From an uncultured Bdellovibrionales bacterium (lineage in GTDB: Bacteria; Patescibacteriota; Minisyncoccia; Moranbacterales; UBA1568), in the NCBI GenBank assembly GCA_964624415.1, contig CAZUWR010000002.1, forward strand, positions 76,454 to 140,453: 64,000 nt of DNA, read 5' to 3'. Within the stretch, counting starts at the first letter, position 1. Every line of letters starts with the position of its first letter. The notes under the pieces were generated by a model. That model did not search any database. It worked only from the letters and a program-made list of their open reading frames with translations, and was not told the origin of the DNA. A program made the translations under genes and the position numbers. Below, piece by piece: positions 18,008 through 55,135 of the stretch.

Positions 18008-18103
18008 ACAACGAGAATCAATGAGCAATTAGCAGTTAACAATTAACGGATACTATATGAGGCGAGAATTTCGTTGATTGTTAATTGTTTTTTGTTGATT
18101 GCC

Positions 18104-18826
18104 TTACAGATTGGCGTAGACGGTTTGCACATCGTCGTGATCCTCGAGTTTTTCAATCAGGAGCTCACACTGCGCCAGCTGCTCCGGCGAAGGAGTTGCT
18201 TTCTGTGTCGGGAGAAAGGTGAGTCCGGCGTCTTTAATAATCAATCCTTGCTGTTCGAGTGCTTCTTTGGTTGTCTGCAGGTCTTCGATTTTCGTATAGA
18301 CCGCGCATATGCCGTCTTCTTCGAAAAAAGCGATATCGTCAGCTCCCGCCTCGATGGCCTGCATCTCGATATCATCCCTGTTTTTTCCTTCGGTATCGAG
18401 GATGATTTCCCCGACCTGACGAAACATAAAACTCACGGATCCGCTGGGCACCATCTTGCCGTTGGTTTTAGTGAGGATAGTTTTGATTTCACTGACGGTT
18501 CGGTTGCGGTTGTCGGTTGCTGTTTTGATAAGGAGTGCAATCTGACCGGGGCCGTACCCTTCGTAGAGATTTTCTTCGATCGTGGTGCCATCCTTGAGTT
18601 CTCCGGTGCCGCGCTTGATGGCGCGCTCGATGTTTTCTTTGGGCATATTCATGCTGCGTGCCTGATCGACTGCCATACGCAGTTTGAAGTTTGTTTCCGG
18701 ATCCCCGCCGCCTTCGCGCGCCGCGATAGTGACGATGCGGCCGTATTTGGTGAAGACATTGGCGCGCTTGGCGTCATTGACCCCTTTACGTTGCTTTATT
18801 CCAGCCCAGTGTGAGTGTCCTGACAT
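18104..18826 (-). CDS. YebC/PmpR family DNA-binding transcriptional regulator
   Basis: MSGHSHWAGIKQRKG... hallmark N-terminus of YebC family, 240 aa. Confidence 0.85.
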   Translation of the reverse strand: MSGHSHWAGIKQRKGVNDAKRANVFTKYGRIVTIAAREGGGDPETNFKLRMAVDQARSMNMPKENIERAIKRGTGELKDGTTIEENLYEGYGPGQIALLIKTATDNRNRTVSEIKTILTKTNGKMVPSGSVSFMFRQVGEIILDTEGKNRDDIEMQAIEAGADDIAFFEEDGICAVYTKIEDLQTTKEALEQQGLIIKDAGLTFLPTQKATPSPEQLAQCELLIEKLEDHDDVQTVYANL

Positions 18827-18989
18827 ACAAAGAAATTCAATTCATTACTGATTTCATCCTATAGGAAAACCGTTTTAAAATCAAGGGAAAAGAGGGAAAT
18901 AAAAATCTCTACCCCGCAGTGTTTTGCGAAGTAGAGAAAGGGTGCGCGATGGCATAGATTATACCTGGTATGTAAATAAATGGTTTTAA

Positions 18990-19238
18990 TTAAACATCTT
19001 GAGTAGGTTCTTTTTCTGTAGAGAATGTTTCAGGAAAGAATTTTTGATAAAAGCGATACACTCCGAAAAACAACAAAGACAGTATAATCACAATACCGAT
19101 AAGCGATAAAATAATTTGTTCTATGCTGATACCATCTTGCACAAGAGCAACCGCATAGGAACCTAAATTATCCACCAAGGGAACCAAAAATGACAATGCG
19201 ATAAAACACACTATCAAGAAAGTGAAATTGATTTTCAT
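18990..19238 (-). CDS. Small membrane protein, hypothetical
   Basis: 82 aa, two TM helices. Confidence 0.35.
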   Translation of the reverse strand: MKINFTFLIVCFIALSFLVPLVDNLGSYAVALVQDGISIEQIILSLIGIVIILSLLFFGVYRFYQKFFPETFSTEKEPTQDV

Positions 19239-19443
19239 TTCATTTGCCTCACTGATTTTTAAAGAAACCTTCGCGAAGTTTCAGCGAAGATGATTATGCT
19301 GCATTAAGCATTTTTATTATAGCGGGTATTTACATTGATGTCAATACTTTATGGCTTTATATGGCTTTAATTAAAACTGTATCCGCAAGTTCATCCATTT
19401 CGTGTATACTTGAGTAAGCAATTAAATTAATTGGATATTTTCT

Positions 19444-20292
19444 ATGCCGGAATTACCCGAGGTGCAAACCGTCGTTTCTCAGCTGGGAGAAAAAATCGTC
19501 GGGAAGAAAGTGAAATCCGTGTGGAGCGACTGGTCCAAAGCCGTGCGCCCGTCTTTGGTGATTTTTAAGAAGGAGATTGTCGGCGCAAAAATTATCGGAA
19601 CGAGACGGAAAGGAAAACACGCTATCCTCGATTTGGACAATGCGCATTCTATCGTCATACACCTCAAGATGACCGGGCATTTGTTGGTCAAAAACGATAT
19701 CAATCGCGAGAATGAGACATTTAAGGATCCGTACAATCAATTTATTCATCACATCCTCGCCTTTGCCGATGGCACGACGCTTGAGTTTTCGGATATGCGC
19801 AAATTCGGCTGGATGGAAGTGATGTCGACTGCGGATGTTGAAACACTCCCAAGTATCGCCTCGCTTGGAATTGATGCGCTTTCAGAAAAGTTCACACCGA
19901 AAGTACTCGATGAAATAGTTGCGAAAAAAGCCAAGTCGAAAATCGGCGCACTGCTTCTTGAGCAAGGAATTATCGCCGGCATCGGCAATATCTATCGCAG
20001 CGAATCTTTGTTTCAAGCAGGTATTCTTCCTGATAGGGTGGCCTCAAGTCTTTCTAAGGATGAACAGCATATCCTTTTGGCGAGTATCAAGAAAGTCCTT
20101 CGTAAGGCGTTGAAACACCGAGGGATGTCGGATGGCGACTTCCGCGATACCGATGGCAGGGAGGGAGAATTTCAAAAAGTTTTGGGCGTGTATGGACGCA
20201 GTGGAAAACCCTGCCCTAAGTGTGGTACAATGATACAACGAATGAAGTTGGGGCAAAGAAGCGCGTTTTTTTGTCCCTCGTGCCAACAATAA
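19444..20292 (+). CDS. mutM: Formamidopyrimidine-DNA glycosylase (Fpg/MutM)
   Basis: MPELPEVQTV N-terminus (catalytic Pro2/Glu3). H2TH region. C-terminal CPKCG...CPSC zinc finger. Confidence 0.9.
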   Translation: MPELPEVQTVVSQLGEKIVGKKVKSVWSDWSKAVRPSLVIFKKEIVGAKIIGTRRKGKHAILDLDNAHSIVIHLKMTGHLLVKNDINRENETFKDPYNQFIHHILAFADGTTLEFSDMRKFGWMEVMSTADVETLPSIASLGIDALSEKFTPKVLDEIVAKKAKSKIGALLLEQGIIAGIGNIYRSESLFQAGILPDRVASSLSKDEQHILLASIKKVLRKALKHRGMSDGDFRDTDGREGEFQKVLGVYGRSGKPCPKCGTMIQRMKLGQRSAFFCPSCQQ

Positions 20293-20308
20293 TTATCTAT
20301 CTCACGAT

Positions 20309-21505
20309 ATGAGCAATAAGCAAAAAATAGTGGTGGCGGTTGTAGTCGTAGCTATCGTTGCGGTGGGCGCATATTTTTTCCGGGATCGTCTCGGTTTAAA
20401 TAAAACACAAGTTAAGCAAATAGAACTTGATAAAAAACCGACAGTAGAAAATACCGGCCCGGTCAATACCGGCCCGGTCAGTCCGATTTCGGGTATCGCG
20501 TGCGAGCATTGGAATCGTCGTCCATTCGCGGTGATGCAACCGGTGGATGTCCAGGCACGTCCGGTCGCCGGATTTTCACAGGCGGATATGGTGTTTGAAA
20601 TGCCCAATCCGGCGGCTGGAATTTTTGTGACGCGGTTGCTCGGTGTTTATTTGTGCGATATGCCCGCCGAAATCGGCGCGATGCGCAGCGCTCGGCACGA
20701 TTATATCAATGTTGCCAAGGGATTGGATGCTATTTTTGTCGGATGGGGTGGATCGGCATTCGCTATCGCGAAGCTGAATGCCGGCGTGATTGACAATATC
20801 GACTGCAACGGTGAGGGTGGAAAGAAGGCTCCGGACTGCTGTTTTCGTAAAGAAAAAACAGGTCTGATGCGCGGAGAGGATACCGGTTTCGCCAAGGGTG
20901 AAAAACTCCTCAGTTGCGCGCAAGATTTCGGTTATCGTATGGAATCGAAGTTCGCAGGTTACGCTCACCAAGATGCACCAGCTACGGATGCACTTCCGAA
21001 TGGCGGGCACCTTTCTATCGGTTTCCCTGGTATTATGAAAGCCGATTACGATTATGATCGCGCCACTAATTCTTACCTGCGAACCTGGGGGAATGCTGAA
21101 GACAAAGATCGCAACAACGGCCAGCGTATCGCGCCGAAAAACATCGTGGTGCTCATTGCGGACAATGAACAGATTTTGGCAGATGTGGATTACAAAGCGC
21201 GAGGCGTGCAGGATCCGTGGGAAGGATTGGAAGCGTGGGAAAAGGAAGGACCGAAGAACATTTCCGGACGCTACAACAATATCCAACTCGGAGACCCATG
21301 GTTCGATACCAATGATAGCGGCGATATTCGTTATTACATGAACGGACAGGAATACAAAGGTACCTGGAAGAAAGACAAGTCGAGTCTCGACAGCAAACTC
21401 TTCTTCTTCGATGAATCGGGAGCCGAGGTGAAATTCGTCCCCGGACAGATCTGGGTGGAAGTGATGACCCCGGCACAGAAATTCACCTGGACCCCGGCAT
21501 CGTAG
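20309..21505 (+). CDS. DUF3048 (YerB-like) membrane-anchored protein
   Basis: N-terminal TM anchor. RRPFAVMQPVDVQARPVAGFSQADMVFEMPNPAAGIFVTRLLGVY fits DUF3048 N-domain consensus. Confidence 0.5.
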   Translation: MSNKQKIVVAVVVVAIVAVGAYFFRDRLGLNKTQVKQIELDKKPTVENTGPVNTGPVSPISGIACEHWNRRPFAVMQPVDVQARPVAGFSQADMVFEMPNPAAGIFVTRLLGVYLCDMPAEIGAMRSARHDYINVAKGLDAIFVGWGGSAFAIAKLNAGVIDNIDCNGEGGKKAPDCCFRKEKTGLMRGEDTGFAKGEKLLSCAQDFGYRMESKFAGYAHQDAPATDALPNGGHLSIGFPGIMKADYDYDRATNSYLRTWGNAEDKDRNNGQRIAPKNIVVLIADNEQILADVDYKARGVQDPWEGLEAWEKEGPKNISGRYNNIQLGDPWFDTNDSGDIRYYMNGQEYKGTWKKDKSSLDSKLFFFDESGAEVKFVPGQIWVEVMTPAQKFTWTPAS

Positions 21506-22584: not shown

Positions 22585-22605
22585 GTGAAAATAGTGTGTG
22601 TATGA

Positions 22606-23112: not shown

Positions 23113-23229
23113 GGGAATGATAAGTGGATATTATTTGCTGAGTACGTGCATTTTTCTGCTGAAAAATTTCTCGTGCTCGACCCGTCGGGCTTCGCAGGCC
23201 TCCGCAAACAATATCCGCTTATCATTAAC
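23113..23229. repeat. Structured intergenic repeat family A, copy A5 (rpsT/ruvA divergent spacer)
   Basis: Arms gggaatgataagtggatattatttgc / gcaaacaatatccgcttatcattaacc. Core tgagtacgtgcatttttctgctgaaaaatttctcgtgctcgacccgtcgggcttcgcaggcctcc. Confidence 0.8.
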
Positions 23230-24027: not shown

Positions 24028-25101
24028 ATGGAAACTACCACACGAGAGCAGATGCGAGTATTGCAAAGCCATATAGCGGATGGCGGTTTTTTGCAATCCA
24101 ACGAGTGGCTTCACTTTCAGGAATTGCTCGGACATCGCATTTTTCATTTCGAGGCGGACGATTGTTTCGCCAATATCATCGAGTACACACTTCCACCAAT
24201 AGGGAAATACTGGTATATTCCTCGCGGACCGGTCATCATCAATCAACAATTAACAAACAACAATCACCAAACAGCAATCAACAGACAGCAGACGACAAGT
24301 AATCATAAACCATCAGAAGCCTTTTTACACAGCATTGTCGTAAAGGCGAAACAGGAGGGAGTCGGCTGGATCCGCATAGAACCCGCGAAAGAAAGTGATC
24401 TGTCCGTATGGGAACAATTTCCAGAAGTGTCTATCAAAAAAGCCGCACACGATACACAACCGCGCGAAATCCTGGTGATGCCGATCGATGGGACACAAGA
24501 AGAAGTCCTGGCACGGATGAAATCGAAAACCCGTTATAATATCCGCCTCGCCGAAAAGAAAGGCGTCAGAGTCTTTACCTCTCACGAACAAGAACATATC
24601 GATACTTTCTGCGATTTAGTGGCTATCACGGCCAAACGCGATGGTATTGTGCCGCACCCGCGCGAGCACTATCGGAAAATGTTGCAGGCGATTCCGGATG
24701 CTATGCTCAAGCTTTATCTTGCCGAGTATGAGGGGACTATCGTCGCAGCCAACCTCGTTGTGTTTTTCGGAACCTATGCGACTTATCTACATGGCGCATC
24801 GGGCAATATCCATCGTGAGGTGATGGCACCGTATCTTTTGCAGTGGCGGCAGATACAGGATGCCAAAAAAAACGGTTGCGAACAGTACGATTTCGGCGGT
24901 GTTAAAACGAAGGATGCGAAGAATACCTGGGGAGGCATCACTCGCTTCAAACAAGGATTCGCGCCCGCGCAGGATGCGACGCATTTTCCGGGCAGCTACG
25001 ATGTCGTACTCGCTAGCAATCGATACCGGGCCTATATCGCATTGCAAACTCTGAAAAAAGCGTATAGAATGGTGAGAAGAATAGTGCGCAATATGTGCTA
25101 A
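24028..25101 (+). CDS. FemXAB-family aminoacyltransferase (peptidoglycan interpeptide bridge formation), with Q/N/T-rich in-frame insertion
   Basis: 357 aa. FemAB-like region HGASGNIHREVMAPYLLQWRQIQDAKKNGCEQYDFGGV. Insertion QQLTNNNHQTAINRQQTTSNHKP at 24241..24300 encoded by CAATCAACA-type repeat. Confidence 0.55.
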   Translation: METTTREQMRVLQSHIADGGFLQSNEWLHFQELLGHRIFHFEADDCFANIIEYTLPPIGKYWYIPRGPVIINQQLTNNNHQTAINRQQTTSNHKPSEAFLHSIVVKAKQEGVGWIRIEPAKESDLSVWEQFPEVSIKKAAHDTQPREILVMPIDGTQEEVLARMKSKTRYNIRLAEKKGVRVFTSHEQEHIDTFCDLVAITAKRDGIVPHPREHYRKMLQAIPDAMLKLYLAEYEGTIVAANLVVFFGTYATYLHGASGNIHREVMAPYLLQWRQIQDAKKNGCEQYDFGGVKTKDAKNTWGGITRFKQGFAPAQDATHFPGSYDVVLASNRYRAYIALQTLKKAYRMVRRIVRNMC

Positions 25102-25237
25102 GTAACTGTCTAAAATCTTTTCGTTTTTTGCTTTTGTATAGTGTTTTTTCGAACTGCCGGGTCAAAGACGAAAGGCGAGAAAAAATACTATCAAAAGCCA
25201 AAAAAACAAGAGGGGAAAGATTTTAGACAGTTACTAA
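25098..25237. repeat. Structured repeat family B, copy B2
   Basis: Fills entire gap between stop of FemX-like gene and next ORF. Same orientation and loop as B1 with few substitutions. Confidence 0.85.
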
Positions 25238-30095: not shown

Positions 30096-30596
30096 ATGGA
30101 TACGTATGTCTGGACGAGCCACGCGCAGTGGAAAATGAAGTATTATGGCCTCAGCAAGCAAAAAGTGACAGGAATTATCCGCCGTCCGGATCGGGTGGAA
30201 AAAGGCATCGCCGGCAACGGTACGATAGCGGTGATGCAGGCCGTCTCGCCGAAAATGATTGATGGGAAAAAGGTCTGGAAGCAGGAGGTGTGGACGATGT
30301 ATCAACGGACAAAGAACAATAAACAAAAAACAATAAACGAAGAACAAAAAACAGCGAACAATAACCGGCAGTATAATGATGGTCATCTTGAAGATGAAGG
30401 CAGATTGCTCTGCTTCGGTGGCGATCGAGGAATACCAACATCGATTGAACATTTCAAAGAGGTTTTGCGAAAGAAATCGTGCACACAAGGAAGTATCAAA
30501 ATCATCAGTGCCTGGCGCTACCCGGGAGTGAGCCCGAAGAATAGTCCTTTACTGGAGGCGATGTTTGAAGAGGCGATGGAGCCTTTGGGGGCTTGA
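30096..30596 (+). CDS. Hypothetical protein with internal Q/N/K low-complexity insertion
   Basis: 166 aa. Segment RTKNNKQKTINEEQKTANNNRQYN (30300..30375) is encoded by the CAATAAACGAAGAA-type repeat shared with tgt. Confidence 0.4.
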   Translation: MDTYVWTSHAQWKMKYYGLSKQKVTGIIRRPDRVEKGIAGNGTIAVMQAVSPKMIDGKKVWKQEVWTMYQRTKNNKQKTINEEQKTANNNRQYNDGHLEDEGRLLCFGGDRGIPTSIEHFKEVLRKKSCTQGSIKIISAWRYPGVSPKNSPLLEAMFEEAMEPLGA

Positions 30597-34296: not shown

Positions 34297-34457
34297 TCAA
34301 ATATCAATCAACAAAAAGCAGTCAACAGGGAACAAATATCAATCAACAGTCAACAGAAAACAAGAAGCAATTAACAATAAGCAAACAACGGATGCTCATG
34401 AGTATTCACGCGCCGTTGCTACCTGTTAATTGTTTATTGTTAGCTGTTAACTGATAA

Positions 34458-35729: not shown

Positions 35730-35868
35730 CAAGCGACCGTCTGAAATATTTCCGTTTTTTGCTTTTGTATAGTGTTTTTTCGAACTGCCGGGTCAAAGAC
35801 GAAAGGCGAGAAAAAATGCTATCAAAAGCCAAAAAACAAGAGGAAAAAGATTTCAGACAGTTGCTAAA
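35730..35868. repeat. Structured repeat family B, copy B3
   Basis: Same hairpin. Arm substitutions are compensatory (gtctGaaat / atttCagac versus gtctAaaat / atttTagac in B1/B2). Confidence 0.85.
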
Positions 35869-37515: not shown

Positions 37516-37965
37516 TCACCCTGCTTCGCGCAGCGTGCGCTGCATTCGGCGGGTATCGTCTTTTTTGGCTATGGAGTGGCGTTTGTCAAAGGATTTCTTG
37601 CCTTTTCCGACCGCGAACTCAAGCTTGAGAAGACGTCTTCTAGTATACACTCGAAGGGGCACAAGTGTCAAGCCTTGAACGCGGATTTTACCTATAAGAG
37701 AGCGGATTTCAGATTTCTTGAGCAGAAGCTTCCGGGATCGGGTCGGATCGTAGTGGACAAGCTTGCCTGCGAAGGGATAGGGCGGGATAAAGGCGTTGGT
37801 AAGGCATAGTTCAGAGCCCTTGATGGTGACATAGCTTCCTTTGAGGCTCAAATGGCCCGTTTTGACGGACTTAACCTCGTGTCCGAGCAGCACCAAACCA
37901 GCCTCATAGCGATCCAGAAGCTCATAATCGAAACCGGCCCGTTTGTTGACAGCGAGTGTTTTCAT
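37516..37965 (-). CDS. smpB: SsrA-binding protein SmpB
   Basis: MKTLAVNKRAGFDYELLDRYEAGLVLLGHEVKSVK... canonical SmpB. Confidence 0.9.
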   Translation of the reverse strand: MKTLAVNKRAGFDYELLDRYEAGLVLLGHEVKSVKTGHLSLKGSYVTIKGSELCLTNAFIPPYPFAGKLVHYDPTRSRKLLLKKSEIRSLIGKIRVQGLTLVPLRVYTRRRLLKLEFAVGKGKKSFDKRHSIAKKDDTRRMQRTLREAG

Positions 37966-38049
37966 GGCCTTATGGTAGCACAAACAAGGGAAAAATGGAA
38001 GGGCGCCTCATATGGACTTTTTGGCGGGTTTGTTTTAGAATGGGTCTAT

Positions 38050-39675
38050 ATGAAGCATCAAATTGAACAATTGATCGGGAAGAGCATCGAAGCTCTTCAG
38101 CAGAGTGGTGTCTGGCCTGAGTTTGCTGTGCCTTCAATCGAGGTGACGCGGCCGAAAAGCGAGGCTTTCGGGGACTATACGACCAATATCGCTTTGGTAT
38201 TGGCGAAAGTGGTCGGAAAAAGCCCGATGGAAATCGCGACTGTTTTGAGGGATGAGATTGTGAAAAGTGCTCAAAATGATTCTGAGAGCATGATTGCGAC
38301 CGTTGAGGTGGCAGCGCCCGGATATATCAACTTCTCCTTTTCGCAGGGATATTTCGAGACTGTCATGACACGGATCATACAGGAGAAACACGCGTACGGT
38401 GACACTCAGGCCGGTGCCGGCATGAAAGTGAATAATGAGTTCATTTCCGCCAATCCGACCGGGCCGCTCACGGTAGGGAATGGTCGCGGAGGATTCTTTG
38501 GCGATTCTTTGGCGCGTATTTTGCGTAAGTCCGGATTTGATGTGACCAATGAATACTATGTCAATGATGCGGGTGAACAGGTGATGAAGCTTGGTCACAG
38601 CGTCCTGAAAGATGCCGAGGCGGTCTATGGCGGGGAGTATATTGAAAGTATCAATAAACAATTAACAAAAAACAATCAACACAAGACAGTGCGGGAAGCG
38701 GGCGAATGGGCGGCGCGGTTTGTACTGGAAGAATATATCCAAAAAACCGTTGCCGAAAAAATGCAGGTGAGCTTTGATGTCTGGATGTCTGAGAAAAAGC
38801 TCTTTGAAGAAGGCAATGTCGATAAGGCGATCGAGACATTGAAAGCGAAAGAACTGACGTTTGAGGTGGATGGTGCGCTGTGGTTTCGCTCGACGCAATT
38901 TGGTGATGACAAGGATCGTGTGCTGGTTAAAAGCGATGGGAATAAGACCTATTTTGCTTCCGACTGCGGGTATACCCTCTCTAAGATGGAGCGCGGGTTC
39001 ACACGCTTGATCGAAATCTGGGGAGCGGATCATCATGGATACATCAACCGTTTCAAGGCGGCTGCGCAGGCACTGGGGCTTCCTGATGATACGGTGCAGT
39101 TTCTGATCGTGCAGCTTGTGAAGGTGATGAAGGATGGCAAGGAGGTACGTATGAGCAAGCGCGCCGGCAATGTCGTCTTGATCGATGATCTGATCGAAGC
39201 GGTCGGTCACGATGTGACACGCTTCTTTTTCCTGATGTATGCGCCTGATACGCATATGAACTTCGACCTCGGTTTGGCGCAGGAACACTCGCAGAAAAAC
39301 CCGGTGTTTTATGTGCAGTACGCCCACGCGCGTATCGCGAGCATTTTGCGTAAGGCGGATGAAGCGGGAGCAATACTTGAGAATACAAGCACTGCTCAAG
39401 CATCCTGGCATGAGAAGGAGCTTTCGCTCGGCCGTCAGCTCGCGCTCTTTCCGGAGCTTGTTAGCAGTGTTTCACAGAGTTATGAAGTGCATAAGATCCC
39501 GCATTATGCTATCGGATTGGCAGATGCATTTCATTCGTTTTACAATGATTGCAAAGTGATCGATGAAGAACACCCGGACGTGACCGCGAGGCGTTTGCGG
39601 ATAGTTTCAGCGACCAAAATCGTGCTGGCGGAGACTTTGCGCCTCATCGGTGTCGACGCCCCAGAGAAAATGTAA
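38050..39675 (+). CDS. argS: Arginyl-tRNA synthetase, with in-frame Q/N/K insertion
   Basis: Start at MKHQIEQLIG (ATG 38050). HIGH-like and KMSK motifs (MSKRAGN). Insertion INKQLTKNNQHKT at ~38650..38690 encoded by CAATCAACA-type repeat. Confidence 0.9.
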   Translation: MKHQIEQLIGKSIEALQQSGVWPEFAVPSIEVTRPKSEAFGDYTTNIALVLAKVVGKSPMEIATVLRDEIVKSAQNDSESMIATVEVAAPGYINFSFSQGYFETVMTRIIQEKHAYGDTQAGAGMKVNNEFISANPTGPLTVGNGRGGFFGDSLARILRKSGFDVTNEYYVNDAGEQVMKLGHSVLKDAEAVYGGEYIESINKQLTKNNQHKTVREAGEWAARFVLEEYIQKTVAEKMQVSFDVWMSEKKLFEEGNVDKAIETLKAKELTFEVDGALWFRSTQFGDDKDRVLVKSDGNKTYFASDCGYTLSKMERGFTRLIEIWGADHHGYINRFKAAAQALGLPDDTVQFLIVQLVKVMKDGKEVRMSKRAGNVVLIDDLIEAVGHDVTRFFFLMYAPDTHMNFDLGLAQEHSQKNPVFYVQYAHARIASILRKADEAGAILENTSTAQASWHEKELSLGRQLALFPELVSSVSQSYEVHKIPHYAIGLADAFHSFYNDCKVIDEEHPDVTARRLRIVSATKIVLAETLRLIGVDAPEKM

Positions 39676-45305: not shown

Positions 45306-48300
45306 ATGAAAAAAGTGGATGTTCGGCAGTCGCTGCCCAAGATGGAAGAGGAAGTCTTGAAGTACTGGTCGGAAGAAAAAATATTTGAGAAGTCAATCAA
45401 TAATCGTGCCGACGCTCCCGTGTACAGCTTCTACGACGGGCCGCCTTTCGCGACCGGGACGCCGCACTACGGGCACTTGGTAGCAAGTGCGCTCAAGGAC
45501 GCCGTGCCACGCTATTGGACGATGCGCGGGTTTTCGGTGGAGCGCAAGTGGGGCTGGGATTGCCATGGACTGCCGATCGAAAACATCGCCGAGAAAGCGC
45601 TGGGCGTGAAGCATAAGAAAGATATCGAAGAGATGGGTGTGGAGAAGTTCAACGAATTTTGTCGATCGACAGTATTGGAATATGTGGATGATTGGAAGAA
45701 AGTCATCACCCGCTTCGGACGATGGGCGGATATGGAGCACGCCTACAAGACGATGGACAAGGACTATATGGAATCGGTCTGGTGGGTGTTCAAGCAGCTT
45801 TGGGACAAGGGGCTTATCTATGAGAGCTATCGGATCATGCATGTCTGCACCCGCTGCGAGACGACGCTGTCGCAGTCCGAGGTGAGCGAAGGATATACGG
45901 ACGTGAAGGATCTGTCGGCGACGGTGAAATTTGAACTGGTCGACGAACCGGGTACATTTGTCTTGGCTTGGACGACAACCCCTTGGACGTTGCCGGGGAA
46001 TGTGGCTTTGGCGGTGGGGGAGGATATTGAGTATGTAAAAGTAAAAGATACTTGGTTTGAATTGTTCAAAGAAGAAGGGAAAGAGGGTAAGTTTTTCACG
46101 GAATATATTATTCTCTCCAAAACCGCCTTTCATAACGGACTTTATAATAAGGCGCTCGAAAATGGAAAACATGTTCGAGGGTTTCATAATACACAACCAG
46201 AGGTTATTGAAACATTTAGAGGATCAGAATTAGTTGGTAAAAAATACACCCCGCCATTTGATTCATATTACACAGATGAGACATTGAAAGACCGTGAGAA
46301 TGGGTGGAAAATTGTCCATGCGGATTTTGTGACGACCGATATGGGAACGGGCATTGCACACGAAGCACCGGCCTTTGGTGATGATGATTGGGAATTACTC
46401 AAGAAAGAACACTTGCCATTCGTGCAGCATGTCAATCTCGATGGGACGATTAAGGCTGAAGTGAAAGAATTGGCAGGACTTTCTGTGAAATCCAAAGAAA
46501 ACCCGCAAGCGACGGATATCGAAGTCATCAAATACCTTGCCGGTAAAGGACTGCTTTTTGCGAAAGAAAAATACGAGCACAGCTATCCGCACTGCTGGCG
46601 CTGCGATACCCCGCTTATTAATTATGCGACGAGCTCGTGGTTCGTGAAGGTGACGGACGTGAAAGAAAAAGCCCTAAAGACGGCGAAGGAAATCGAATGG
46701 TCACCCGAGCATGTGAAGGCGGGGCGCTTCGGCAAGTGGCTCGAAGGCGCGCGCGACTGGTCTATCAGCCGGCAGCGGTTTTGGGCGAGCGTGATGCCGG
46801 TGTGGAAATGTGACGGCAATCAACAATCAACACAGAACAATCAACAGGGATGCGGCTGGGTAAAAGTTTTTGAGTCGACAAAAGATTTGTGGGCGGTTAG
46901 CGGTGTTGAGATTAATGACTTGCATAAACACATCGTTGATAAAATAACATTTCCGTGTGAGCAATGTAATGGCACCATGAAGCGCATTCCCGATGTGCTC
47001 GACACCTGGTTTGATAGTGGTTCGATGCCGTATGCGCAGATGCACTATATGGGTGAAGGAAGCGAGAATGCGGAAAAATTCGAGAAGAGTTTCCCGGCAC
47101 AGTTTATCGCCGAAGGTATCGATCAGACCCGTGCCTGGTTTTACTACCTGCACATCCTGAGTGCAGCCTTGATGGAAAAGCCTGCCTTCAAACACGTAAT
47201 CGTCAACGGCATCGTCCAGGCGGAGGATGGCAAGAAAATGTCCAAGCGTCTCAACAATTATCCCGATCCAATGCTGATGTTTGAGAAACACGGCGCGGAC
47301 GCGATGCGGCTCTACCTGCTTTCTTCGCCGATCGTTTCGGCCGAAAACCTCAATTTTTCTGAAAAGGATATGTCGGAAATCTCGCGCAATGTTTTCCGTA
47401 TGCTGTGGAATTCATATTCGTTTTTTGTGATGTATGCGGAAATTGATGGATGGGCTCCTTCGCAATCAACAATCAACAATCAGCAATCAACAAAGAATAT
47501 ACTCGATAGGTGGATGTTGTCCGAACTGCAGTTGCTGATCAAGGAAGTGAACGGGTATATGGAAGGGTATGATATGATGCGGTCGACACGCGCTTTTGCA
47601 CCGTTTATCGACCACCTATCCAACTGGTATATCCGTCGTTCCCGCAAGCGCTTCTGGAAGTCCGAAGATGACAGTGACAAGAATGCGGCCTATCAGACTT
47701 TGCATACCGTGCTGGTGACGCTCGCCAAGCTGATGGCGCCGTTCACGCCGTTCATCGCCGAAGAAATCTACCGCAACCTGACGGGCGAGGAGTCCGTACA
47801 CCTGACTGATTATCCTGTGGCGGATGAGGGGTTGATTGATGAGCAGTTGAATGAGAATATGCAACACGCACGTTTTATCGTGACGGTTGGATTGAAATTT
47901 CGCGCTGATCAAAAAGTAAAAGTAAGGCAACCGCTTTTGTCGGTTACGGCGCGTCCAATTGAAAAAGAGTTGCAAGATATCGTGACAGATGAGTTAAACG
48001 TGAAACAATACATCAGTCAGGAAGGTATGGATGGACTTGTCCAACTTGATCTCACCATCACCCCCGAACTCAAAAAAGAAGGACAGGCGAGGGAAATCAT
48101 CCGCTTTATCCAAGAGACACGCAAGGAAGCGGGATTTGAGGTGGATGACCGTATCGAGGTGGGGTATGAGGGATTCGAGACCATCTTTGATACCGCCGAG
48201 CTCAGAGACCTTATCGCCAAGGAAGTCCTCGCGGAAAAAGGTCTGCGCGCAGGCGAGATAGCCCAGACGGATATTGCCAAAGAAACTACTATCGATGGCG

Positions 48301-48329
48301 TGAAGCTGATGGTATGGCTCAAAAGGTAA
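45306..48329 (+). CDS. valS: Valyl-tRNA synthetase, with two in-frame Q/N/S/T insertions
   Basis: HIGH (PHYGHLVAS) and KMSKS (KMSKRL) motifs, 1007 aa. Insertions GNQQSTQNNQQG (46818..46852) and SQSTINNQQSTKN (47462..47500) encoded by tandem caatcaaca repeats. Confidence 0.95.
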   Translation: MKKVDVRQSLPKMEEEVLKYWSEEKIFEKSINNRADAPVYSFYDGPPFATGTPHYGHLVASALKDAVPRYWTMRGFSVERKWGWDCHGLPIENIAEKALGVKHKKDIEEMGVEKFNEFCRSTVLEYVDDWKKVITRFGRWADMEHAYKTMDKDYMESVWWVFKQLWDKGLIYESYRIMHVCTRCETTLSQSEVSEGYTDVKDLSATVKFELVDEPGTFVLAWTTTPWTLPGNVALAVGEDIEYVKVKDTWFELFKEEGKEGKFFTEYIILSKTAFHNGLYNKALENGKHVRGFHNTQPEVIETFRGSELVGKKYTPPFDSYYTDETLKDRENGWKIVHADFVTTDMGTGIAHEAPAFGDDDWELLKKEHLPFVQHVNLDGTIKAEVKELAGLSVKSKENPQATDIEVIKYLAGKGLLFAKEKYEHSYPHCWRCDTPLINYATSSWFVKVTDVKEKALKTAKEIEWSPEHVKAGRFGKWLEGARDWSISRQRFWASVMPVWKCDGNQQSTQNNQQGCGWVKVFESTKDLWAVSGVEINDLHKHIVDKITFPCEQCNGTMKRIPDVLDTWFDSGSMPYAQMHYMGEGSENAEKFEKSFPAQFIAEGIDQTRAWFYYLHILSAALMEKPAFKHVIVNGIVQAEDGKKMSKRLNNYPDPMLMFEKHGADAMRLYLLSSPIVSAENLNFSEKDMSEISRNVFRMLWNSYSFFVMYAEIDGWAPSQSTINNQQSTKNILDRWMLSELQLLIKEVNGYMEGYDMMRSTRAFAPFIDHLSNWYIRRSRKRFWKSEDDSDKNAAYQTLHTVLVTLAKLMAPFTPFIAEEIYRNLTGEESVHLTDYPVADEGLIDEQLNENMQHARFIVTVGLKFRADQKVKVRQPLLSVTARPIEKELQDIVTDELNVKQYISQEGMDGLVQLDLTITPELKKEGQAREIIRFIQETRKEAGFEVDDRIEVGYEGFETIFDTAELRDLIAKEVLAEKGLRAGEIAQTDIAKETTIDGVKLMVWLKR

Positions 48330-49550: not shown

Positions 49551-49712
49551 TTATGTCAAGAGCGCATGACTTTTGTGTGACTTTTGGCGGAGAGAAGGTG
49601 TGAAAAAACCACTTGAGTACAAGCGATTAGAAATAGAGTTAGGGGTAAAAAATAAGTGTAGCATGGAATTCCATGCTACACCCTGTGAAAGAAATATCTC
49701 TTGAATAGAGTG

Positions 49713-50924
49713 TTACTCGAACACGTATCCAGTTGGTACGGTTACGATACCGCTTTCTGGATTCTTTTGGTCGAAATACAGTCCACGAGCCACATCATCT
49801 TCTCGATTATAGCCAATGACAGTATCTGGTGGAATAACAACCCCCTCACAGATAATAGCCTTCTGAATTTTGCAGCCTTTATGAATAACTACATTATCAA
49901 ATACAACCGTATTTCTGATAATTGATTCATAAAGAAGGCTACTTCGTCCGATAAGCGCTCCATCCACATCGCATCTTTCGACGATAGCCCCACCAGCCAA
50001 GGCAAAGATCCCGTGAGAATAATTGTTTTTCCCCATTGGTAGGTTATCTGTCCCGGTTCGCATAGGCCAGTCTTTATTGTAAAGATTGATAGATGGTTTC
50101 ATTGAAACCAAATCCATACAAGCATTCCAATAAGATTCTACGGTACCGACATCTTGCCAGTAGTGCTCAGTTTGTCCAGGGATAACATTATCTTGATAAT
50201 TGTATGCGAACATAGGTATGTTATCATCCAACATCTTTGGAATAATATCGTTGCCAAAATCATGACCAACAGTATCGTCATTGAGAATGGTTTCTAAATC
50301 AAGCAGATTGAAAAAATAGTGACCCATCGAAACCAGAGAACGCCCTGGACGCCCTGGAATTTCAGCTGGGCATTCAGGTTTTTCAGTGAATTTTTCTATA
50401 CGGCCAGCGTAATTAACGGTAAGCACGCCAAACCTCGACGCATCTTTCGTATTTATTTCCATAGCACATATAGTGCATGAGGATTTCGTCTGTAGATGGT
50501 ATTCATACATTTGTTTGAAATCAATAGCTACAACATGGTCTCCAGAGAGAACCGCGATATGTTGAGGATTTCCACAATTTTTAATAATACCAAGGTTTTG
50601 AAGGATAGCGTCAGCAGTCCCCCGATACCAATCATCGATTCCATTTGCTTGTTGCGGATGGATAGTATAGATGGAAAACCCAAGAAGTGGTGCTGATGGC
50701 CAATTTTCATTCACATGAATATTGAGCGGGTGCGCCAAGTATTGTGTTGCTAGAAGTATTCTTCTGAATCCTGAATTGACAGAATTTGATAACATAAAGT
50801 CAATGATTTTATGTTTACCAAAAGGAACAGCTGGTTTTGGTAAGACGTTTGTAATAGGACCTAAACGACCGCCTCTGCCGCCAGCCAAGATAATTACAGG
50901 TACACTATCGATATATTCTGACAT
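49713..50924 (-). CDS. glgC: Glucose-1-phosphate adenylyltransferase (GlgC-like: NTP-transferase + left-handed beta-helix)
   Basis: VPVIILAGGRGGRLGPITNVLPKPAVPFGKHKIIDFMLSNSVNSGFRRILLATQY closely follows GlgC N-terminal consensus. C-terminal LbH repeats. Confidence 0.7.
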   Translation of the reverse strand: MSEYIDSVPVIILAGGRGGRLGPITNVLPKPAVPFGKHKIIDFMLSNSVNSGFRRILLATQYLAHPLNIHVNENWPSAPLLGFSIYTIHPQQANGIDDWYRGTADAILQNLGIIKNCGNPQHIAVLSGDHVVAIDFKQMYEYHLQTKSSCTICAMEINTKDASRFGVLTVNYAGRIEKFTEKPECPAEIPGRPGRSLVSMGHYFFNLLDLETILNDDTVGHDFGNDIIPKMLDDNIPMFAYNYQDNVIPGQTEHYWQDVGTVESYWNACMDLVSMKPSINLYNKDWPMRTGTDNLPMGKNNYSHGIFALAGGAIVERCDVDGALIGRSSLLYESIIRNTVVFDNVVIHKGCKIQKAIICEGVVIPPDTVIGYNREDDVARGLYFDQKNPESGIVTVPTGYVFE

Positions 50925-51195: not shown

Positions 51196-51918
51196 ATGGA
51201 ATACAACTACACCGCTATTATTCTGCGGAAAAAAAAGATCGGCGAGACGGATCGTCTGTACACTTTCTATACCCTCGAAGCGGGGAAACTGCAGTCGATC
51301 GGGCGCGGTATCCGCAAGCCCCAGGCCAAGTTGGCCGGTCATCTGGAGACGCTGAGCCAGTCGGATGTCATCGTGGCGCGCCGGCACGGCTTGGGTAATA
51401 TCGCGAGCGCCATCACGGAGCGGTATTTTCTCGCGCTCAAATCGGACGAGGCGACACTTGCGCTCGTGTTCGAATCCATCGCTTCATTTGAAAAACTGGT
51501 TGATTTTGAGGAAAAGGACGAAGCTTTGTTTGATTTGTTGCAGATCTATCTGACGACCGCCAACGCTCTCGTATCGGAGGGTAAGTCGGACAAGGTCAAA
51601 ATCGTGACGCAGGGGTTTTTGTTTCAGCTCCTCAGTCACCTCGGGTATCATTTGGAGATGCGCGCTTGTGCTGTTTCCGGTGAACCATTGGCCTCGGTCA
51701 ATCGCTACTACTTCAGTCCCGATGCCGGAGGGGTTATCGAAGCGCGATTTGTGGGTCAGGCTCAGCGAGCGGTCGCTATCAATGAAAACGCTATCAAGCT
51801 CATCCGGCTGTTTTTTCAGAATAAACTCTCTTCGCTTTCGCGGGTACAAGTGGCACAGGAAGATCTGGTATGCGTCGAGTCGGTGTCGCGGGCGTTTTTG
51901 CAGTGGATCGGACAGTAA
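51196..51918 (+). CDS. recO: DNA repair protein RecO
   Basis: 240 aa. N-terminal OB fold (AIILRKKKIGETDRLYTFYT) and RecO C-terminal helical domain. Confidence 0.7.
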   Translation: MEYNYTAIILRKKKIGETDRLYTFYTLEAGKLQSIGRGIRKPQAKLAGHLETLSQSDVIVARRHGLGNIASAITERYFLALKSDEATLALVFESIASFEKLVDFEEKDEALFDLLQIYLTTANALVSEGKSDKVKIVTQGFLFQLLSHLGYHLEMRACAVSGEPLASVNRYYFSPDAGGVIEARFVGQAQRAVAINENAIKLIRLFFQNKLSSLSRVQVAQEDLVCVESVSRAFLQWIGQ

Positions 51919-52095
51919 AGAAGACAATCGTATTTGAGATGAATTTCTATGGAAAAGATTTTTTCAAAAGCCATTGGCGTACTCGCCTCGGCTGTGAAAA
52001 AATACTTTTGCGTAGAAATCCGCTTGAAAGAATGTCTTATACGGCAATAAAGTATGCTATACTGGACGCAGAATAAAGTACTAAAAGTTATCGTT

Positions 52096-53964
52096 ATGGG
52101 ACTTCAAGACTTGAATGAGGAATTGTATAAACGCGAAGGCGCTAATCGGCAAAATGCCCGATCGGGTGCTTTCGAGGTGCGACAGAACTTCCAAGAAAAC
52201 ACCGCTCGCGATGCCTTCCAAGCGCAGAATGGTTGGAGCAGCGTGCAAGAATCTTTCGCGAGTAAGCACCGGGATGCTATAAAAAGAGGGCTGATCGCTG
52301 CGGGAAGTATCATCATCATCGCCTTGTGCTATTTTGTCTTCACGCTTTTTCGGCAGTCGGCATTCAGTAGCGACCATGTGGCGCTCAAGGTGGATGGGCC
52401 TTCGGATGTGAGCGGCTCGGAGGCATCGCTGTTTGTTTTCACCTATACTAATACCAATCGTGCCAATTTGACGGATGCGGAGCTATCACTGACCTACCCG
52501 GAGAATTTCAAGCCGGATGCATTGGAAAATATGACTATCAGCGGATCATCGAGCAATCTGCATATCGGCACGATAGCGGGACACTCGGAAGGAAGGATCA
52601 GTATTCACGGGAAGTTTTACGGTTCCAAGGGTTCCATTGCGTATATCAAGGGCGTGCTTCGTTACAAGCCGGACGGGGTGGGAAGTTCGTTTCAAGCGGA
52701 TTCGCAGATCGGCGTGACGATTCAGTCGCCTTCCATCAGGATTTCTATGGAAGCGCCGCTGGAGGTGTCTTCGGGAGGTGTGGTGGAATATCGTGCGGAC
52801 TATACCAATATGAGTGATGTATCGTTCAGTAACCTTCGTTTAAAAATGGACTATCCGGATGGGTTTCATTTGCAGAGCGCCGATCCGAAGACTTCGGAAG
52901 GGGATGCGATTTGGTATGTGGGTAATCTTGCACCCGGCCAATCGGGTAGTATCCGCGTAACCGGTACGCTTGATGGTTCTAAAAATGAAGTTAAAACGCT
53001 CCGCGCGCATATCGGGATGATGCAGGGCAACGGGGAATTGCTTTCGTATAGCGATGGTGACAGACTGACTAAAATCGTCGCTTCGCCGCTGTTGGTACAG
53101 CAAACGGTCAATGGTTTGGATAAACTCAATGCCAATGCGGGAGGTGTACTTAATTATGTCGTTCGCTATCGCAATGACAGCGATCTTGGTTTGCGCAATA
53201 TCATTATCACACTGGAGATTCAGGGAGCCGCGGTTGATTTTTCAAGACTACAGTCTTCGGGCGGCGCTTTTGATAGCGCGCGCAAGGTGGTCACCTGGAA
53301 GGCCTCGGATATCAAGGATCTGGCTAACTTAGGGCCTGGCAAAGAAGGATCTGTCTCGGTAACTGTTCCCGTTTTCGCAAGCATTCCTGTAAAGGCAGTA
53401 TCGGATACGAATTTCGTCGTAACCAGCATCGCCAAGATCGACAGTCCGGATATCGCTACGCCAAGCGGCGCAAACAAGGTGATTGGCAGCAATACTTTGC
53501 AGGTTAAGATCAATTCCGGCGTCAGCATACAATCAGCGGCGCTGTATCAAGACACTGCACTGCCAAATACCGGTCCTATGCCTATGCAGATTGGCCAAGA
53601 AACGACCTATACCATACACTGGACGGTTTCCAATACGACCAATGCTGTCGACAATGCGGTTGCGACGGCCTATCTGCCAACAGGTATCCGTTGGACAGGA
53701 AAAATCTCTCCGACATCGGAAAACATCACCTATGATGCTCGAACCAATCAGATCACCTGGAATCTGGGAACAATCAAAAACGGTGTTGGTTCTCTGTTAC
53801 CAGTACGCGAAGTCTTGTTTCAGGTAGGTGTGACACCGCAGGTCAATCAGGTAGAACAAAACGTTATGCTTGTGGATGAGGCTGCACTGACCGCTCACGA
53901 CACCTTTACGGGTGAAACCCTGCAATCGAAAATAGAAGGGCAACGATTAGCTATCCCTCAGTAA
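52096..53964 (+). CDS. Membrane-anchored cell-surface protein with DUF11/CARDB-like Ig-fold repeats
   Basis: Start at MGLQDLNEEL. One N-terminal TM helix then ~5 repeated beta-rich modules (…GQSGSIRVTGTLDG…, …GKEGSVSVTVPV…). Confidence 0.5.
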   Translation: MGLQDLNEELYKREGANRQNARSGAFEVRQNFQENTARDAFQAQNGWSSVQESFASKHRDAIKRGLIAAGSIIIIALCYFVFTLFRQSAFSSDHVALKVDGPSDVSGSEASLFVFTYTNTNRANLTDAELSLTYPENFKPDALENMTISGSSSNLHIGTIAGHSEGRISIHGKFYGSKGSIAYIKGVLRYKPDGVGSSFQADSQIGVTIQSPSIRISMEAPLEVSSGGVVEYRADYTNMSDVSFSNLRLKMDYPDGFHLQSADPKTSEGDAIWYVGNLAPGQSGSIRVTGTLDGSKNEVKTLRAHIGMMQGNGELLSYSDGDRLTKIVASPLLVQQTVNGLDKLNANAGGVLNYVVRYRNDSDLGLRNIIITLEIQGAAVDFSRLQSSGGAFDSARKVVTWKASDIKDLANLGPGKEGSVSVTVPVFASIPVKAVSDTNFVVTSIAKIDSPDIATPSGANKVIGSNTLQVKINSGVSIQSAALYQDTALPNTGPMPMQIGQETTYTIHWTVSNTTNAVDNAVATAYLPTGIRWTGKISPTSENITYDARTNQITWNLGTIKNGVGSLLPVREVLFQVGVTPQVNQVEQNVMLVDEAALTAHDTFTGETLQSKIEGQRLAIPQ

Positions 53965-53974
53965 CTGTTCGATT

Positions 53975-55135
53975 ATGTTTGAAATAACCCAACAAGAAGG
54001 CGCGAGCCGTCACGGTACGCTGACCACGAGAGCCGGCGCCCTACAGACACCGTTTTTTATGCCGGATGCTACCCGTGCATCCGTGCGCGGTCTGACGTCC
54101 GATGAAATTGCCGATACTGGCGTGGGCGCACTTGTGGTAAATACCTATCATTTGCTTTTGCAGCCTGGCGAAGAGCTCATTGGGCATGCTGGCGGAATAC
54201 ATCGCTTTATGCGCTGGGATCGGCCCATACTTTCCGACTCGGGCGGATATCAGGTTTATTCGCTTATACATAAACATCCCGGGACGGGTAAAATTACCGA
54301 AGAGGGTGCACAGTTTCGTTCGACTCGCGACGGCTCAAAACACCTGCTCACTCCCGAGCGAGCGATACAGGTGCAGTTTGATCTTGGAGTGGACATGATG
54401 GTATGTCTGGATGATCCGCGTCCCAATGATGTCAGTGAAGAAGAAGCATCCGCAGCAGTGGATCGGACGCTGCGATGGGCGAAACGATGTCGGGAGGAGT
54501 ATGATGGACAGATAGCGGCGAGGGCAATGACCGATGCGAATCGTCCGCTTTTGTTCGGTGTCGTGCAAGGCGGACTCTTTGTTCCATTACGGGAGCGATG
54601 CGCCCAAGGACTGGCAGCTCTCGGGTTTGATGGGTACGGTTTCGGCGGGCGGCACATCGGTGAAGATGGGCAGTTTCTGACGGATATACTTGCGAAGACG
54701 GCAGCGTTTATTCCGGAGAAGAGTATTCGTTTCGCGCTCGGTATCGGAACACCTGCGGATATCGTGCGTTGTTTTGCACTCGGGTGGGATATGTTTGACT
54801 GTGTTATCCCGACGCGTGAAGGGCGGCACGGACGATTGTTTGTGTGGAAAGACTTGTCAAAGAACGATGAGCATAGAACAATAAACGAAGAAAAGGCGAT
54901 AAGCAACGACACTGTATTGCCAGATGATTTCTATGAAACTATTAATATCAACAATGAACGGTTCAGAGAAGACTTCACCCCTATCGATTCGACATGTGAT
55001 TGCACAGCTTGCAAGCAGTATTCAAGGGCGTATATAAGGCACTTGTTTTCCGTCAGTGAACCTTTGGCACAGCATCTCACTTCTATTCACAACCTGCGTT
55101 TTTATGCGAGGCTGATGGAACGCTTGCGAAAATGA
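53975..55135 (+). CDS. tgt: Queuine tRNA-ribosyltransferase (tRNA-guanine transglycosylase), with in-frame low-complexity insertion
   Basis: Tgt signatures (LSDSGGYQV, zinc site CDCTACKQYSRAYIRHL). Insertion NDEHRTINEEKAISND (54858..54910) shares the 16-mer aacaataaacgaagaa with 30327..30343. Confidence 0.9.
   Translation: MFEITQQEGASRHGTLTTRAGALQTPFFMPDATRASVRGLTSDEIADTGVGALVVNTYHLLLQPGEELIGHAGGIHRFMRWDRPILSDSGGYQVYSLIHKHPGTGKITEEGAQFRSTRDGSKHLLTPERAIQVQFDLGVDMMVCLDDPRPNDVSEEEASAAVDRTLRWAKRCREEYDGQIAARAMTDANRPLLFGVVQGGLFVPLRERCAQGLAALGFDGYGFGGRHIGEDGQFLTDILAKTAAFIPEKSIRFALGIGTPADIVRCFALGWDMFDCVIPTREGRHGRLFVWKDLSKNDEHRTINEEKAISNDTVLPDDFYETININNERFREDFTPIDSTCDCTACKQYSRAYIRHLFSVSEPLAQHLTSIHNLRFYARLMERLRK

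Follow-up and report, generated by a model that had tools for sequence, protein, structure and literature searches.

Heptanucleotide repeat arrays in intergenic hairpins and within conserved-enzyme loops of a Moranbacteria genome

The 64-kb stretch analysed here (hereafter the window; GC content ~48%) comes from one metagenome-assembled genome of the Moranbacteria (Moraniibacteriota), a lineage of the candidate phyla radiation (CPR), and it carries tandem arrays of a 7-nt unit in two settings: in spacers between genes, where forward and inverted copies face each other as hairpins, and in frame inside conserved enzymes. These repeats are a new example of a heptanucleotide class known from cyanobacteria and other bacteria, and not a new kind of element. 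We consider it probable that the arrays are heptanucleotide simple-sequence repeats (SSRs), of the short tandemly repeated repetitive (STRR) or long-SSR type, which expand locally and are filtered by selection. The analysis covers the window and about 577 kb of sampled CPR loci, which are referred to below by locus numbers (L001 and so on) where they need to be told apart.

The most frequent 9-mer of the window is CAATCAACA, with 12 copies. With at most one mismatch allowed it has 50 matches, compared with 21.0 ± 5.0 in dinucleotide-preserving shuffles (n = 100), none of which reaches 50, so the motif is indeed commoner than base composition predicts. The matches are spaced 7 nt apart, and Tandem Repeats Finder (TRF) reports a period of 7 at every array site; the unit is therefore a heptamer, and the 9-nt tandem units of the original prediction, which was made from the letters of this stretch, resolve into overlapping heptamers in both TRF and the periodicity scan. 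The heptamers are CAATCAA, CAATTAA, CAATAAA and CAGTCAA, with A-rich relatives such as GAACAAT. At all array sites except tgt, TRF gives 3.9–7.0 copies with 73–91% matches.

TRF and our own period-7 scan, which was run at a strict and a lax threshold, together recover arrays at 18019–18045/18073–18101, 24235–24287, 30309–30364, 34310–34376/34424–34450, 38652–38681, 46817–46846, 47463–47493 and 61765–61795/61820–61846. The strict threshold yields eight period-7 arrays in the window, against none in each of 20 Markov-3 simulations, and the lax threshold yields 11 arrays, which represent eight loci in 64 kb: five coding sites (FemX, the open reading frame (ORF) starting at 30096, argS and two sites in ileS) and three hairpins with two arms each. 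Head-to-tail 7-nt units in at least three copies are thus present at all sites except tgt, at many dispersed loci, and in an excess that is specific to period 7. The eight sites listed in the original prediction each contain what had been described for them. An exact 16-mer, AACAATAAACGAAGAA, occurs at 30329 in the 30096 ORF and at 54877 in tgt, as had been pointed out; because a Markov-3 model predicts about three repeated 16-mers for the window by chance, this single shared string is weak evidence by itself. A further string, CAATAAACAATTAACA, is common to the argS array and one arm of the second hairpin.

Alignment with orthologues places the coding segments in variable positions of otherwise conserved proteins, and their sequences are missing from the closest relatives, in agreement with the predicted lineage specificity. 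The IleRS, Tgt and FemX of the window each have a single identical entry in the protein database; the next Moranbacteria proteins are 69–82% identical to them, and the same database has no other relative that is at least 90% identical to any of the three. The array in the FemAB-family gene (FemX, 24028–25101) lies at 24235–24317 on the forward strand, encodes IINQQLTNNNHQTAINRQQTTSNHKPS and comprises seven copies of a period-7 unit in TRF. Relative to an 87%-identical orthologue (L087), protein and DNA alignments give a net gain of 63 nt, that is nine heptamers or 21 amino acids, and the ‘empty’ site of L087 already holds a short seed, GGCAAGCAACAATCGACAG (2.5 units, CAAGCAACAATCGACAG). In an AlphaFold (AF2) model of FemX with a mean predicted local distance difference test (pLDDT) score of 88.9, residues 74–92 of the insert have pLDDT below 50 and form a coil between a strand and a helix. 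The region is identical in sequence in an independent Logan assembly, and the FemX array is therefore not an assembly artefact.

The gene at 45306–48329 had been called valS, but it is ileS: its product scores 894 bits with TIGR00392, and the valS model falls below its cut-off. Site 1 of ileS (46815–46850, forward strand) consists of twelve codons (GNQQSTQNNQQG) that separate the paired cysteines of a CxC/CxxC knuckle, where the structure in PDB entry 8c8v has CEGC, and represents a net gain of 33 nt over the closest relatives. Among 119 relatives, 113 have nothing at this site and six have inserts of different sequence at exactly that position. The AF2 model of IleRS is poor overall (mean pLDDT 63) and, owing to this low confidence, was used solely for the C-terminal half and for local coil assignment; it shows site 1 as coil, with pLDDT below 50 at residues 506–513. 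Site 2 (47463–47493, forward strand) is the cleanest array of the window, with 4.4 copies of CAATCAA at 91% matches, and encodes QSTINNQQSTK in the loop between helices 686–713 and 732–753 of the same model. It is equal in length to an unrelated sequence in the related locus L084, which holds CAATCG at this place.

The argS array (38652–38681, forward strand; period 7 and 4.3 copies in TRF) encodes INKQLTKNNQH. Its segment is equal in length to that of L084 and two amino acids longer than that of L086, and it aligns to a non-gapped stretch of PDB entry 3fnr; as read from these alignments, the array replaces a variable segment without net insertion. At the equivalent place the argS of L001 has a different heptamer, AAAATGA. 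We also note that the longest argS ORF begins with 66 extra codons (37852–38049), an N-terminal extension that is missing in three of three relatives, all of which start with MKHKIEQ, and the true start is probably the ATG at 38050.

A small ORF (30096–30596) encoding a conserved hypothetical protein carries an A-rich array of GAACAAT, AAACAAA and AAACGAA units at 30303–30364 on the forward strand, for which TRF reports periods of 7 and 14. This array sits in a variable linker flanked by two conserved blocks, and the majority of the 231 homologues match in two stretches. The tgt insert (54857–54910, forward strand) adds 18 amino acids (SKNDEHRTINEEKAISNDTV) in a hypervariable beta-turn and is missing from both L084 and L086. 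No 7-nt periodicity was detected in it even at the lax threshold, and it is probably a decayed array. The loop has 30 residues in the Tgt of the window, compared with 2 in Z. mobilis TGT; across 120 Moranbacteria Tgt proteins its length varies by ~48 residues, and peptides of heptamer type are frequent in it, for instance EFPISNFQFPN, which (AATTTCC)n encodes. The in-frame insertions that had been proposed for the coding copies are therefore real at FemX (+63 nt), ileS site 1 (+33) and tgt (+54), but not at argS and ileS site 2, which have the length found in L084. The accompanying claim, that conserved enzymes tolerate the repeats at surface loops, is borne out for variable, disordered loops by the low-confidence coil in FemX, the extended Tgt loop and the position of IleRS site 1 within the CxxC knuckle. 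Near the tgt insert, an exact 38-nt duplicate occupies 55082–55119 and 56188–56225, one copy belonging to the 3′ end of tgt and its partner lying ~1.1 kb downstream.

The reading frames of the coding arrays follow from the arithmetic of the repeat. As 7 shares no factor with 3, the three frames of a perfect heptamer array all translate into one and the same seven-residue peptide. In the ileS arrays each of the three sense frames is open, and the readings are permutations of QSTINNQ. The antisense unit TTGATTG contains TGA, so that antisense reading meets stops in three of three frames at site 2 and in two of three at site 1, and otherwise gives peptides rich in Cys, Leu, Ile and Val. The choice of frame matters just for units that contain TAA (CAATTAA and CAATAAA), as in FemX, argS and the 30096 ORF. 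The original prediction had the coding copies always in a readable frame; the frames do read through, but there is no bias for the CAATCAA arrays, for which every sense frame is open and yields the same peptide, and selection would act only on the TAA-containing units. Sense orientation and readability are thus accounted for by repeat arithmetic plus purifying selection, and provide no evidence for a special insertion mechanism.

The intergenic arrays form three hairpins with a common layout: an A/C-rich array, a loop of ~23–31 nt and an inverted G/T-rich array. Each hairpin spans the entire spacer between two co-directional genes, and hairpins 1 and 3 stop 11 nt short of the next start codon. 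Hairpin 1 (18019–18101) lies between the yebC stop codon (18104) and the ruvC ATG (18007), both genes being on the reverse strand; its A/C-rich arm (18019–18048), 23-nt loop and G/T-rich arm (18072–18101) show period 7 in both arms by TRF, and the 30-nt arms are 77% complementary. The forward strand folds as RNA with −32.2 kcal/mol (z −5.6), and the reverse strand, which is the mRNA sense, with only −12.0 kcal/mol (z −1.4). Hairpin 2 (34297–34457) fills the spacer between the pyruvate kinase stop codon (34296) and tRNA-Ser(GGA) (34458), with an A/C-rich array of CAATCAA, CAGTCAA and CAATTAA units at 34297–34389, a loop and a G/T-rich arm at 34416–34453; its 38-nt arms are 79% complementary and the predicted fold has −39.3 kcal/mol (z −5.9). 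Hairpin 3 (61765–61851), which the original prediction did not include, has the same architecture built from a different heptamer family (CCAATAA, CCAATCA and CCAAAAT). It lies between the stop codon of an AI-2E transporter gene (61756) and the probable ATG (61863) of a gene with the Pfam TP_methylase domain, and has 30-nt arms with 87% complementarity and a fold of −27.2 kcal/mol (z −3.45). Arms of 30–38 nt with 77–87% complementarity and z scores between −3.45 and −5.9 confirm that forward and inverted copies form imperfect intergenic hairpins.

What the three hairpins have in common is confined to their arms: the periodic arms align, and no homology between the loops was found by alignment. 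A candidate shared core in the loops of hairpins 1 and 2 (AACGGATNCT..ATGAG) gained no support from alignment and was discarded. In a search of the whole window against Rfam, tmRNA and tRNA are the only families above the gathering threshold, and at hairpin 1 there is no Rfam match at E ≤ 1. The intergenic hairpins have no T-tract typical of intrinsic terminators.

The period-7 arrays extend well beyond the window. Altogether 44 such arrays were counted in 29 CPR loci (about 577 kb), compared with 2.3 expected from a Markov-3 model, a ~19-fold excess. For the other periods, 5 matches expectation, 8 and 9 give at most three arrays, and 6 gives 20 arrays versus 4.7 (4-fold), an excess driven partly by codon periodicity. 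The density is 8.2 arrays per 100 kb in the CPR loci and 0.9 in a non-CPR control, a ~9-fold difference; the control consists of 875 kb of loci from the unrelated phyla that made up most of the matches listed of an IleRS-seeded scan of a genome collection. Long ORFs contain roughly half of the CPR arrays, and in each of these cases it is the A-rich strand that is sense.

The syntenic loci of the two closest relatives, L084 and L086, whose IleRS proteins are 74% and 70% identical to that of the window, have no period-7 arrays in ~20 kb each. In L001, from a Moranbacterium that is less closely related, 16.5 kb contain eight arrays, with units GGAACAA/TGAACAA, AAAATGA and CCAATTT, and these include both IleRS sites and the ArgRS site of the window; GGAACAA/TGAACAA is present at at least five loci of L001, and the CAATCAA family at at least six unlinked loci of the window. 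The IleRS site-2 loop holds period-7 arrays of five different units in five lineages (Moranbacteria, Uhrbacteria and Saccharibacteria), those with units other than that of the window being in L001, L012, L051 and L057, and more generally different lineages put different heptamers into the same IleRS, ArgRS, Tgt and FemX loops. Two IleRS proteins of 82% identity differ by a 5-amino-acid indel within the array. No link of heptamer repeats with CPR, Parcubacteria or Saccharibacteria was found in the searchable literature, nor was any earlier description of CPR-wide enrichment and of recurrent occupation of the same core-enzyme loops by different heptamers, although absence there is not proof. As a separate observation, IleRS site 1 of L002 (10921–11100; also in P0047) has an ATGAACA-type heptamer array followed by a GC-rich segment with an inverted repeat, CTCCCCTC...GGGGAGCGGGGA; this composite insert encodes 43 amino acids within the Cys knuckle and is conserved in a pair of IleRS proteins with 80% identity.

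CAATCAA arrays also occur in other phyla. A metagenome scan with a pattern of three perfect CAATCAA units provided 80 loci among the matches listed, on contigs of 32–66% GC, and the following counts refer to these. Eleven of the 80 arrays lie within genes, including those for alanyl-tRNA synthetase and a DegT aminotransferase, where they encode TINNQQST, and none (0/80) lies in an antisense ORF. Sixteen end 0–45 nt before ORF starts, and seven of seven starts tested agree with gene callers; the upstream position is conserved at xerC orthologues (L108, L129 and L146) and at dapD orthologues (L141 and L151). An inverted partner accompanies 20 of the 80, always 5′ of the A/C arm, and this G/T-first topology is opposite to that of the CPR hairpins inspected, namely the three of the window and those of L001, L006 and L008. 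By exact look-ups, some of the array contigs belong to Microcoleus (Cyanobacteria), some to Chryseobacterium (Bacteroidota), where complete isolate genomes are among the matches, and some to ‘Candidatus’ soil metagenome-assembled genomes; a Microcoleus contig has (CAGTCAA)/(CAATCAA) arrays upstream of nadD. Rfam searches with seven metagenomic hairpins returned only sub-threshold eukaryotic miRNA-precursor matches and no bacterial family.

A distinct hairpin family stands out among these loci (L095, L108, L122, L124, L129, L139, L140, L141, L145, L146, L151, L153 and L158; GC 0.56–0.60). It is intergenic, is found in GC-rich soil or peat bacteria and has the layout (TTGATTG)n, a paired inner stem with a loop, then (CAATCAA)n, with no Rfam match. 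Its A/C arm often ends a few nucleotides before the ATG of xerC, dapD, queE and others. The hairpin of L158 lies between divergent genes, so that each gene receives an A/C leader.

Heptanucleotide repeats have been known for decades. STRR heptanucleotides of filamentous cyanobacteria were reportedly described by Mazel in 1990, and heptameric-repeat hairpins around small dispersed repeats of Nostoc by Elhai in 2008; STRRs are said to be 7-nt tandem units, to exist as several families per genome and to be mostly intergenic, and the window arrays are alike in these respects. The CAGTCAA variant in hairpin 2 is a rotation of CAACAGT, the reported unit of STRR3. The present arrays differ from STRRs in their host (CPR Moranbacteria with ~48% GC), in being in frame inside core enzymes and in having the A/C arm of the hairpin on the 5′ side.

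A parallel in logic is provided by the direct repeats of the heptamer TAACTGA that are known from marine Beggiatoaceae, from Cyanobacteria and from Bacteroidetes (MacGregor 2015, PMC4679880), which like our arrays range from two to many copies, are mostly intergenic, often stand just 5′ of start codons, have a patchy multi-phylum distribution and are oriented within ORFs by the logic of stop codons. That argument, stops in all frames, was made earlier for TAACTGA, which because of its stops in all forward frames is confined within genes to ORF ends or to the reverse orientation, mostly in hypothetical proteins (PMC4679880). CAATCAA, in contrast, is free of stops in the sense direction and is found inside conserved enzymes (IleRS, ArgRS and FemX here; AlaRS and DegT elsewhere). 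According to two later papers, heptamers are the most abundant class of long SSRs in many bacterial genomes (Mrazek 2007, via PMC4679880 and PMC4692102), they cluster between co-directional genes, and polymerase slippage over a contact of ~7 nt has been proposed as their source (PMC4679880, PMC4692102). The surveys of long SSRs of 5–11 nt (Mrazek 2007, via PMC4679880 and PMC4692102) pre-date CPR genomes. The phenomenon is not peculiar to one genome but falls into a known heptanucleotide SSR class (PMC4679880, PMC4692102). Unlike the G-poor arrays here, the GGGNATC repeats known from Xanthomonas and Nostoc are rich in G and fold into quadruplexes (PMC4692102). Low-complexity, N/Q/K-rich insertions in conserved proteins of AT-rich eukaryotic parasites, and coding microsatellites or contingency loci, are similar in being hydrophilic, disordered surface-loop inserts or length-variable repeat DNA in genes; unlike these, the present arrays are short and imperfect, lie in essential genes and show no sign of phase variation. 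They comprise 4–7 units, stand mid-gene in essential enzymes and showed no polymorphism, which sets them apart from phase-variable contingency loci, and single-unit slippage within a gene would cause a frameshift since 7 is not a multiple of 3.

In the local-expansion model that we favour, arrays would start from short CAA(T)NNA-type seeds and gain or lose 7 nt at a time at their own site, through replication slippage or unequal exchange, and selection would decide which arrays persist. Intergenic arrays could persist freely and, as inverted pairs, would give long imperfect hairpins across the intercistronic spacer. Survival in a gene would require a net length change that is a multiple of 3, the A/C-rich strand as sense, and a loop able to tolerate a disordered hydrophilic peptide of Q, N, S, T and K; because few loops would qualify, the same IleRS, ArgRS, Tgt and FemX loops would be reoccupied in different CPR lineages, each by its own heptamer. 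Local expansion fits the FemX gain, which is exactly nine units beside a pre-existing seed, and expansion with selective filtering also fits the CAATCG seed at ileS site 2 of L084, the 5-amino-acid IleRS indel, the frame arithmetic and the location in disordered loops. The original description of a slippage-prone micro-repeat is in this sense supported, as a genome-wide family that conserved enzymes tolerate at loops. We infer both slippage as the generating step and the way in which one unit family would come to occupy many loci of a genome.

Several observations weigh against this model. Local slippage alone does not explain why CAATCAA is at no fewer than six unlinked loci of the window when L001 has other units, nor why homologous loci of related genomes carry other units; unlinked arrays have multi-unit strings in common (CAATAAACAATTAACA and AACAATAAACGAAGAA), which hints at inter-locus copying; the same-length replacements at argS and ileS site 2 are not predicted by simple expansion; and the 33-nt gain at ileS site 1 is not a multiple of 7. 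The only near-identical pairs available, L084/L085 (99.92%), L002/L003 and L089/window, which are all 99.9–100% identical, contain no indels that could reveal copy-number polymorphism, the L084/L085 pair being free of arrays. Since slippage leaves the spread of unit families, the common strings and the replacements unexplained, copying between loci, by ectopic gene conversion or by an unrecognised mobile or templated process, stays a live option. In its copy-and-paste form, the ‘proliferating micro-repeat’ of the original prediction, in which the arrays or hairpins are a miniature mobile element or are homogenised by ectopic gene conversion, possibly in addition to slippage, we judge it unlikely. 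The genome-specific unit families at many unlinked loci, the 16-mers that span two variant units in unlinked arrays, the two same-length replacements and the other dispersed hairpin repeats in the same genome (see below) speak for it. The hairpins are also similar to repetitive extragenic palindromic (REP) sequences, bacterial interspersed mosaic elements (BIMEs) and miniature inverted-repeat transposable elements (MITEs) in being imperfect, ~80–160 nt long and placed between co-directional genes; unlike in these, the arms are tandem heptamers, the loops are not conserved between copies and cannot be aligned, and the coding copies are one-armed, non-palindromic tandem arrays without an inverted partner. 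Among the 40 ORFs of the window whose products were scanned for domains (~20 small ORFs being left out) there is no gene for a transposase, a REP-associated tyrosine transposase (RAYT), an HUH protein or a reverse transcriptase (RT), and inspection by eye alone gave no obvious target-site duplication. The ‘empty’ FemX site is already seeded, and its gain is an exact number of units. The ‘coding mini-MITEs’ that had been suggested are not supported. A broader proposition, that CPR and possibly Bacteroidota, Cyanobacteria and some soil phyla possess an active, family-specific, gene-conversion-like or templated process that spreads heptamer arrays, overwrites IleRS, ArgRS, Tgt, FemX and AlaRS loops and builds hairpins or 5′ leaders, we hold to be less probable still; if true, reduced genomes would have a general but so far unrecognised way of turning over protein loops and of evolving gene boundaries. 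Diversity-generating retroelements (DGRs) are common in CPR, and this, together with the genome-specific families and the two same-length replacements, is what could be said for templated synthesis, in which an RT, a DGR-like or a telomerase-like activity would write heptamers into breaks or target loops. The RT-free ORF set in 64 kb, the absence of any template/variable-region pair among the repeated 16-mers of the window around the arrays, the absence of adenine-specific substitutions and the targets themselves, which are housekeeping enzymes and not variable proteins of the C-type-lectin or Ig-like kind, make it very improbable.

The remaining alternatives concern what the arrays do, or whether they need an explanation at all. 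A functional role of the intergenic arrays is plausible from their placement: they may act as a G-poor, S1-type unstructured leader or as a stabilising, terminating or occluding intercistronic stem-loop. The metagenomic arrays that end just before ORF starts, the conserved position upstream of xerC and dapD and the way in which the window hairpins fill their spacers and, in two of three cases, approach the next ATG are consistent with such a role, and MacGregor suggested the same role for the TAACTGA repeats (PMC4679880). That the intergenic arrays are primarily putative RNA or DNA elements of this kind, with the coding copies as by-products, is possible, although it seems to us much less probable than local expansion: for hairpin 1 a good fold is confined to the strand antisense to its operon, the A/C-first topology of the window is opposite to that of the 20 metagenomic hairpins, neither an Rfam family nor homologous loops nor a terminator-type T-tract accompanies the arrays, and the coding arrays are left unexplained. 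Chance, compositional low complexity or an assembly artefact could be invoked for the tgt segment, which alone is non-periodic, and for the single common 16-mer, which is near chance expectation. Neither the shuffles nor the simulations reproduce the motif count or any array, the excess is strongest at period 7, the independent assembly is identical, and arrays are present in many independent metagenome-assembled and isolate genomes. These explanations have next to no likelihood and are ruled out for all sites, except with regard to the periodic nature of the tgt segment.

Heptamer arrays account for some of the length differences that universally conserved enzymes show in CPR, for example through an insert within a zinc knuckle of IleRS. 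Marker-protein alignments, phylogenies and structure predictions for CPR are affected at the array loops, and array peptides such as QSTINNQ and FPISNFQ risk being taken for real sequence features. With CAATCAA arrays in the cultivable Chryseobacterium and Microcoleus, slippage rates and a possible 5′-leader or hairpin function become testable.

Other repeats of the window deserve mention. The window contains dnaA (7212–8663) and dnaN (8696–9961) and therefore adjoins the replication origin; the rest consists of ordinary housekeeping genes. A palindromic element of ~125 nt, with terminal inverted repeats TTAGTAACTGTCTAAAATCTTTC...GGAAAGATTTTAGACAGTTAC, is present in three copies (6946–7070, 25098–25222 and 35749–35830; ~87% mean column identity), all intergenic and one just 5′ of dnaA. 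Its appearance is that of a MITE-like element or a structured RNA, and Rfam gave only sub-threshold eukaryotic miRNA-hairpin matches for it. A second dispersed repeat of ~60–70 nt with the core AATTTTTCAGCAGAAAAAT is found at 1978–2046 and 8694–8762, with a related pair at 4928–4985 and 23140–23197 and fragments near 10001–10016 and 55926; short inverted repeats stand alongside at 1956/2055 and 8674/8770, and one copy lies between dnaA and dnaN. GC skew is positive in every 2-kb bin, including the reverse-strand genes upstream of dnaA, so the presumed origin is not marked by a change of sign. A perfect 26-nt palindrome, GTGTAGCATGGAATTCCATGCTACAC, occupies 49656–49681, just 3′ of the end (49713) of a nucleotidyl-transferase gene (49713–50924, reverse strand). 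Lastly, an in-frame hexanucleotide repeat, (ACCGTA) in 4.7 copies with 95% matches, is located at 57931–57958, at the extreme 5′ end of an ORF (57922–59340) that encodes a class II aminoacyl-tRNA synthetase core and an HGTP anticodon-binding domain.

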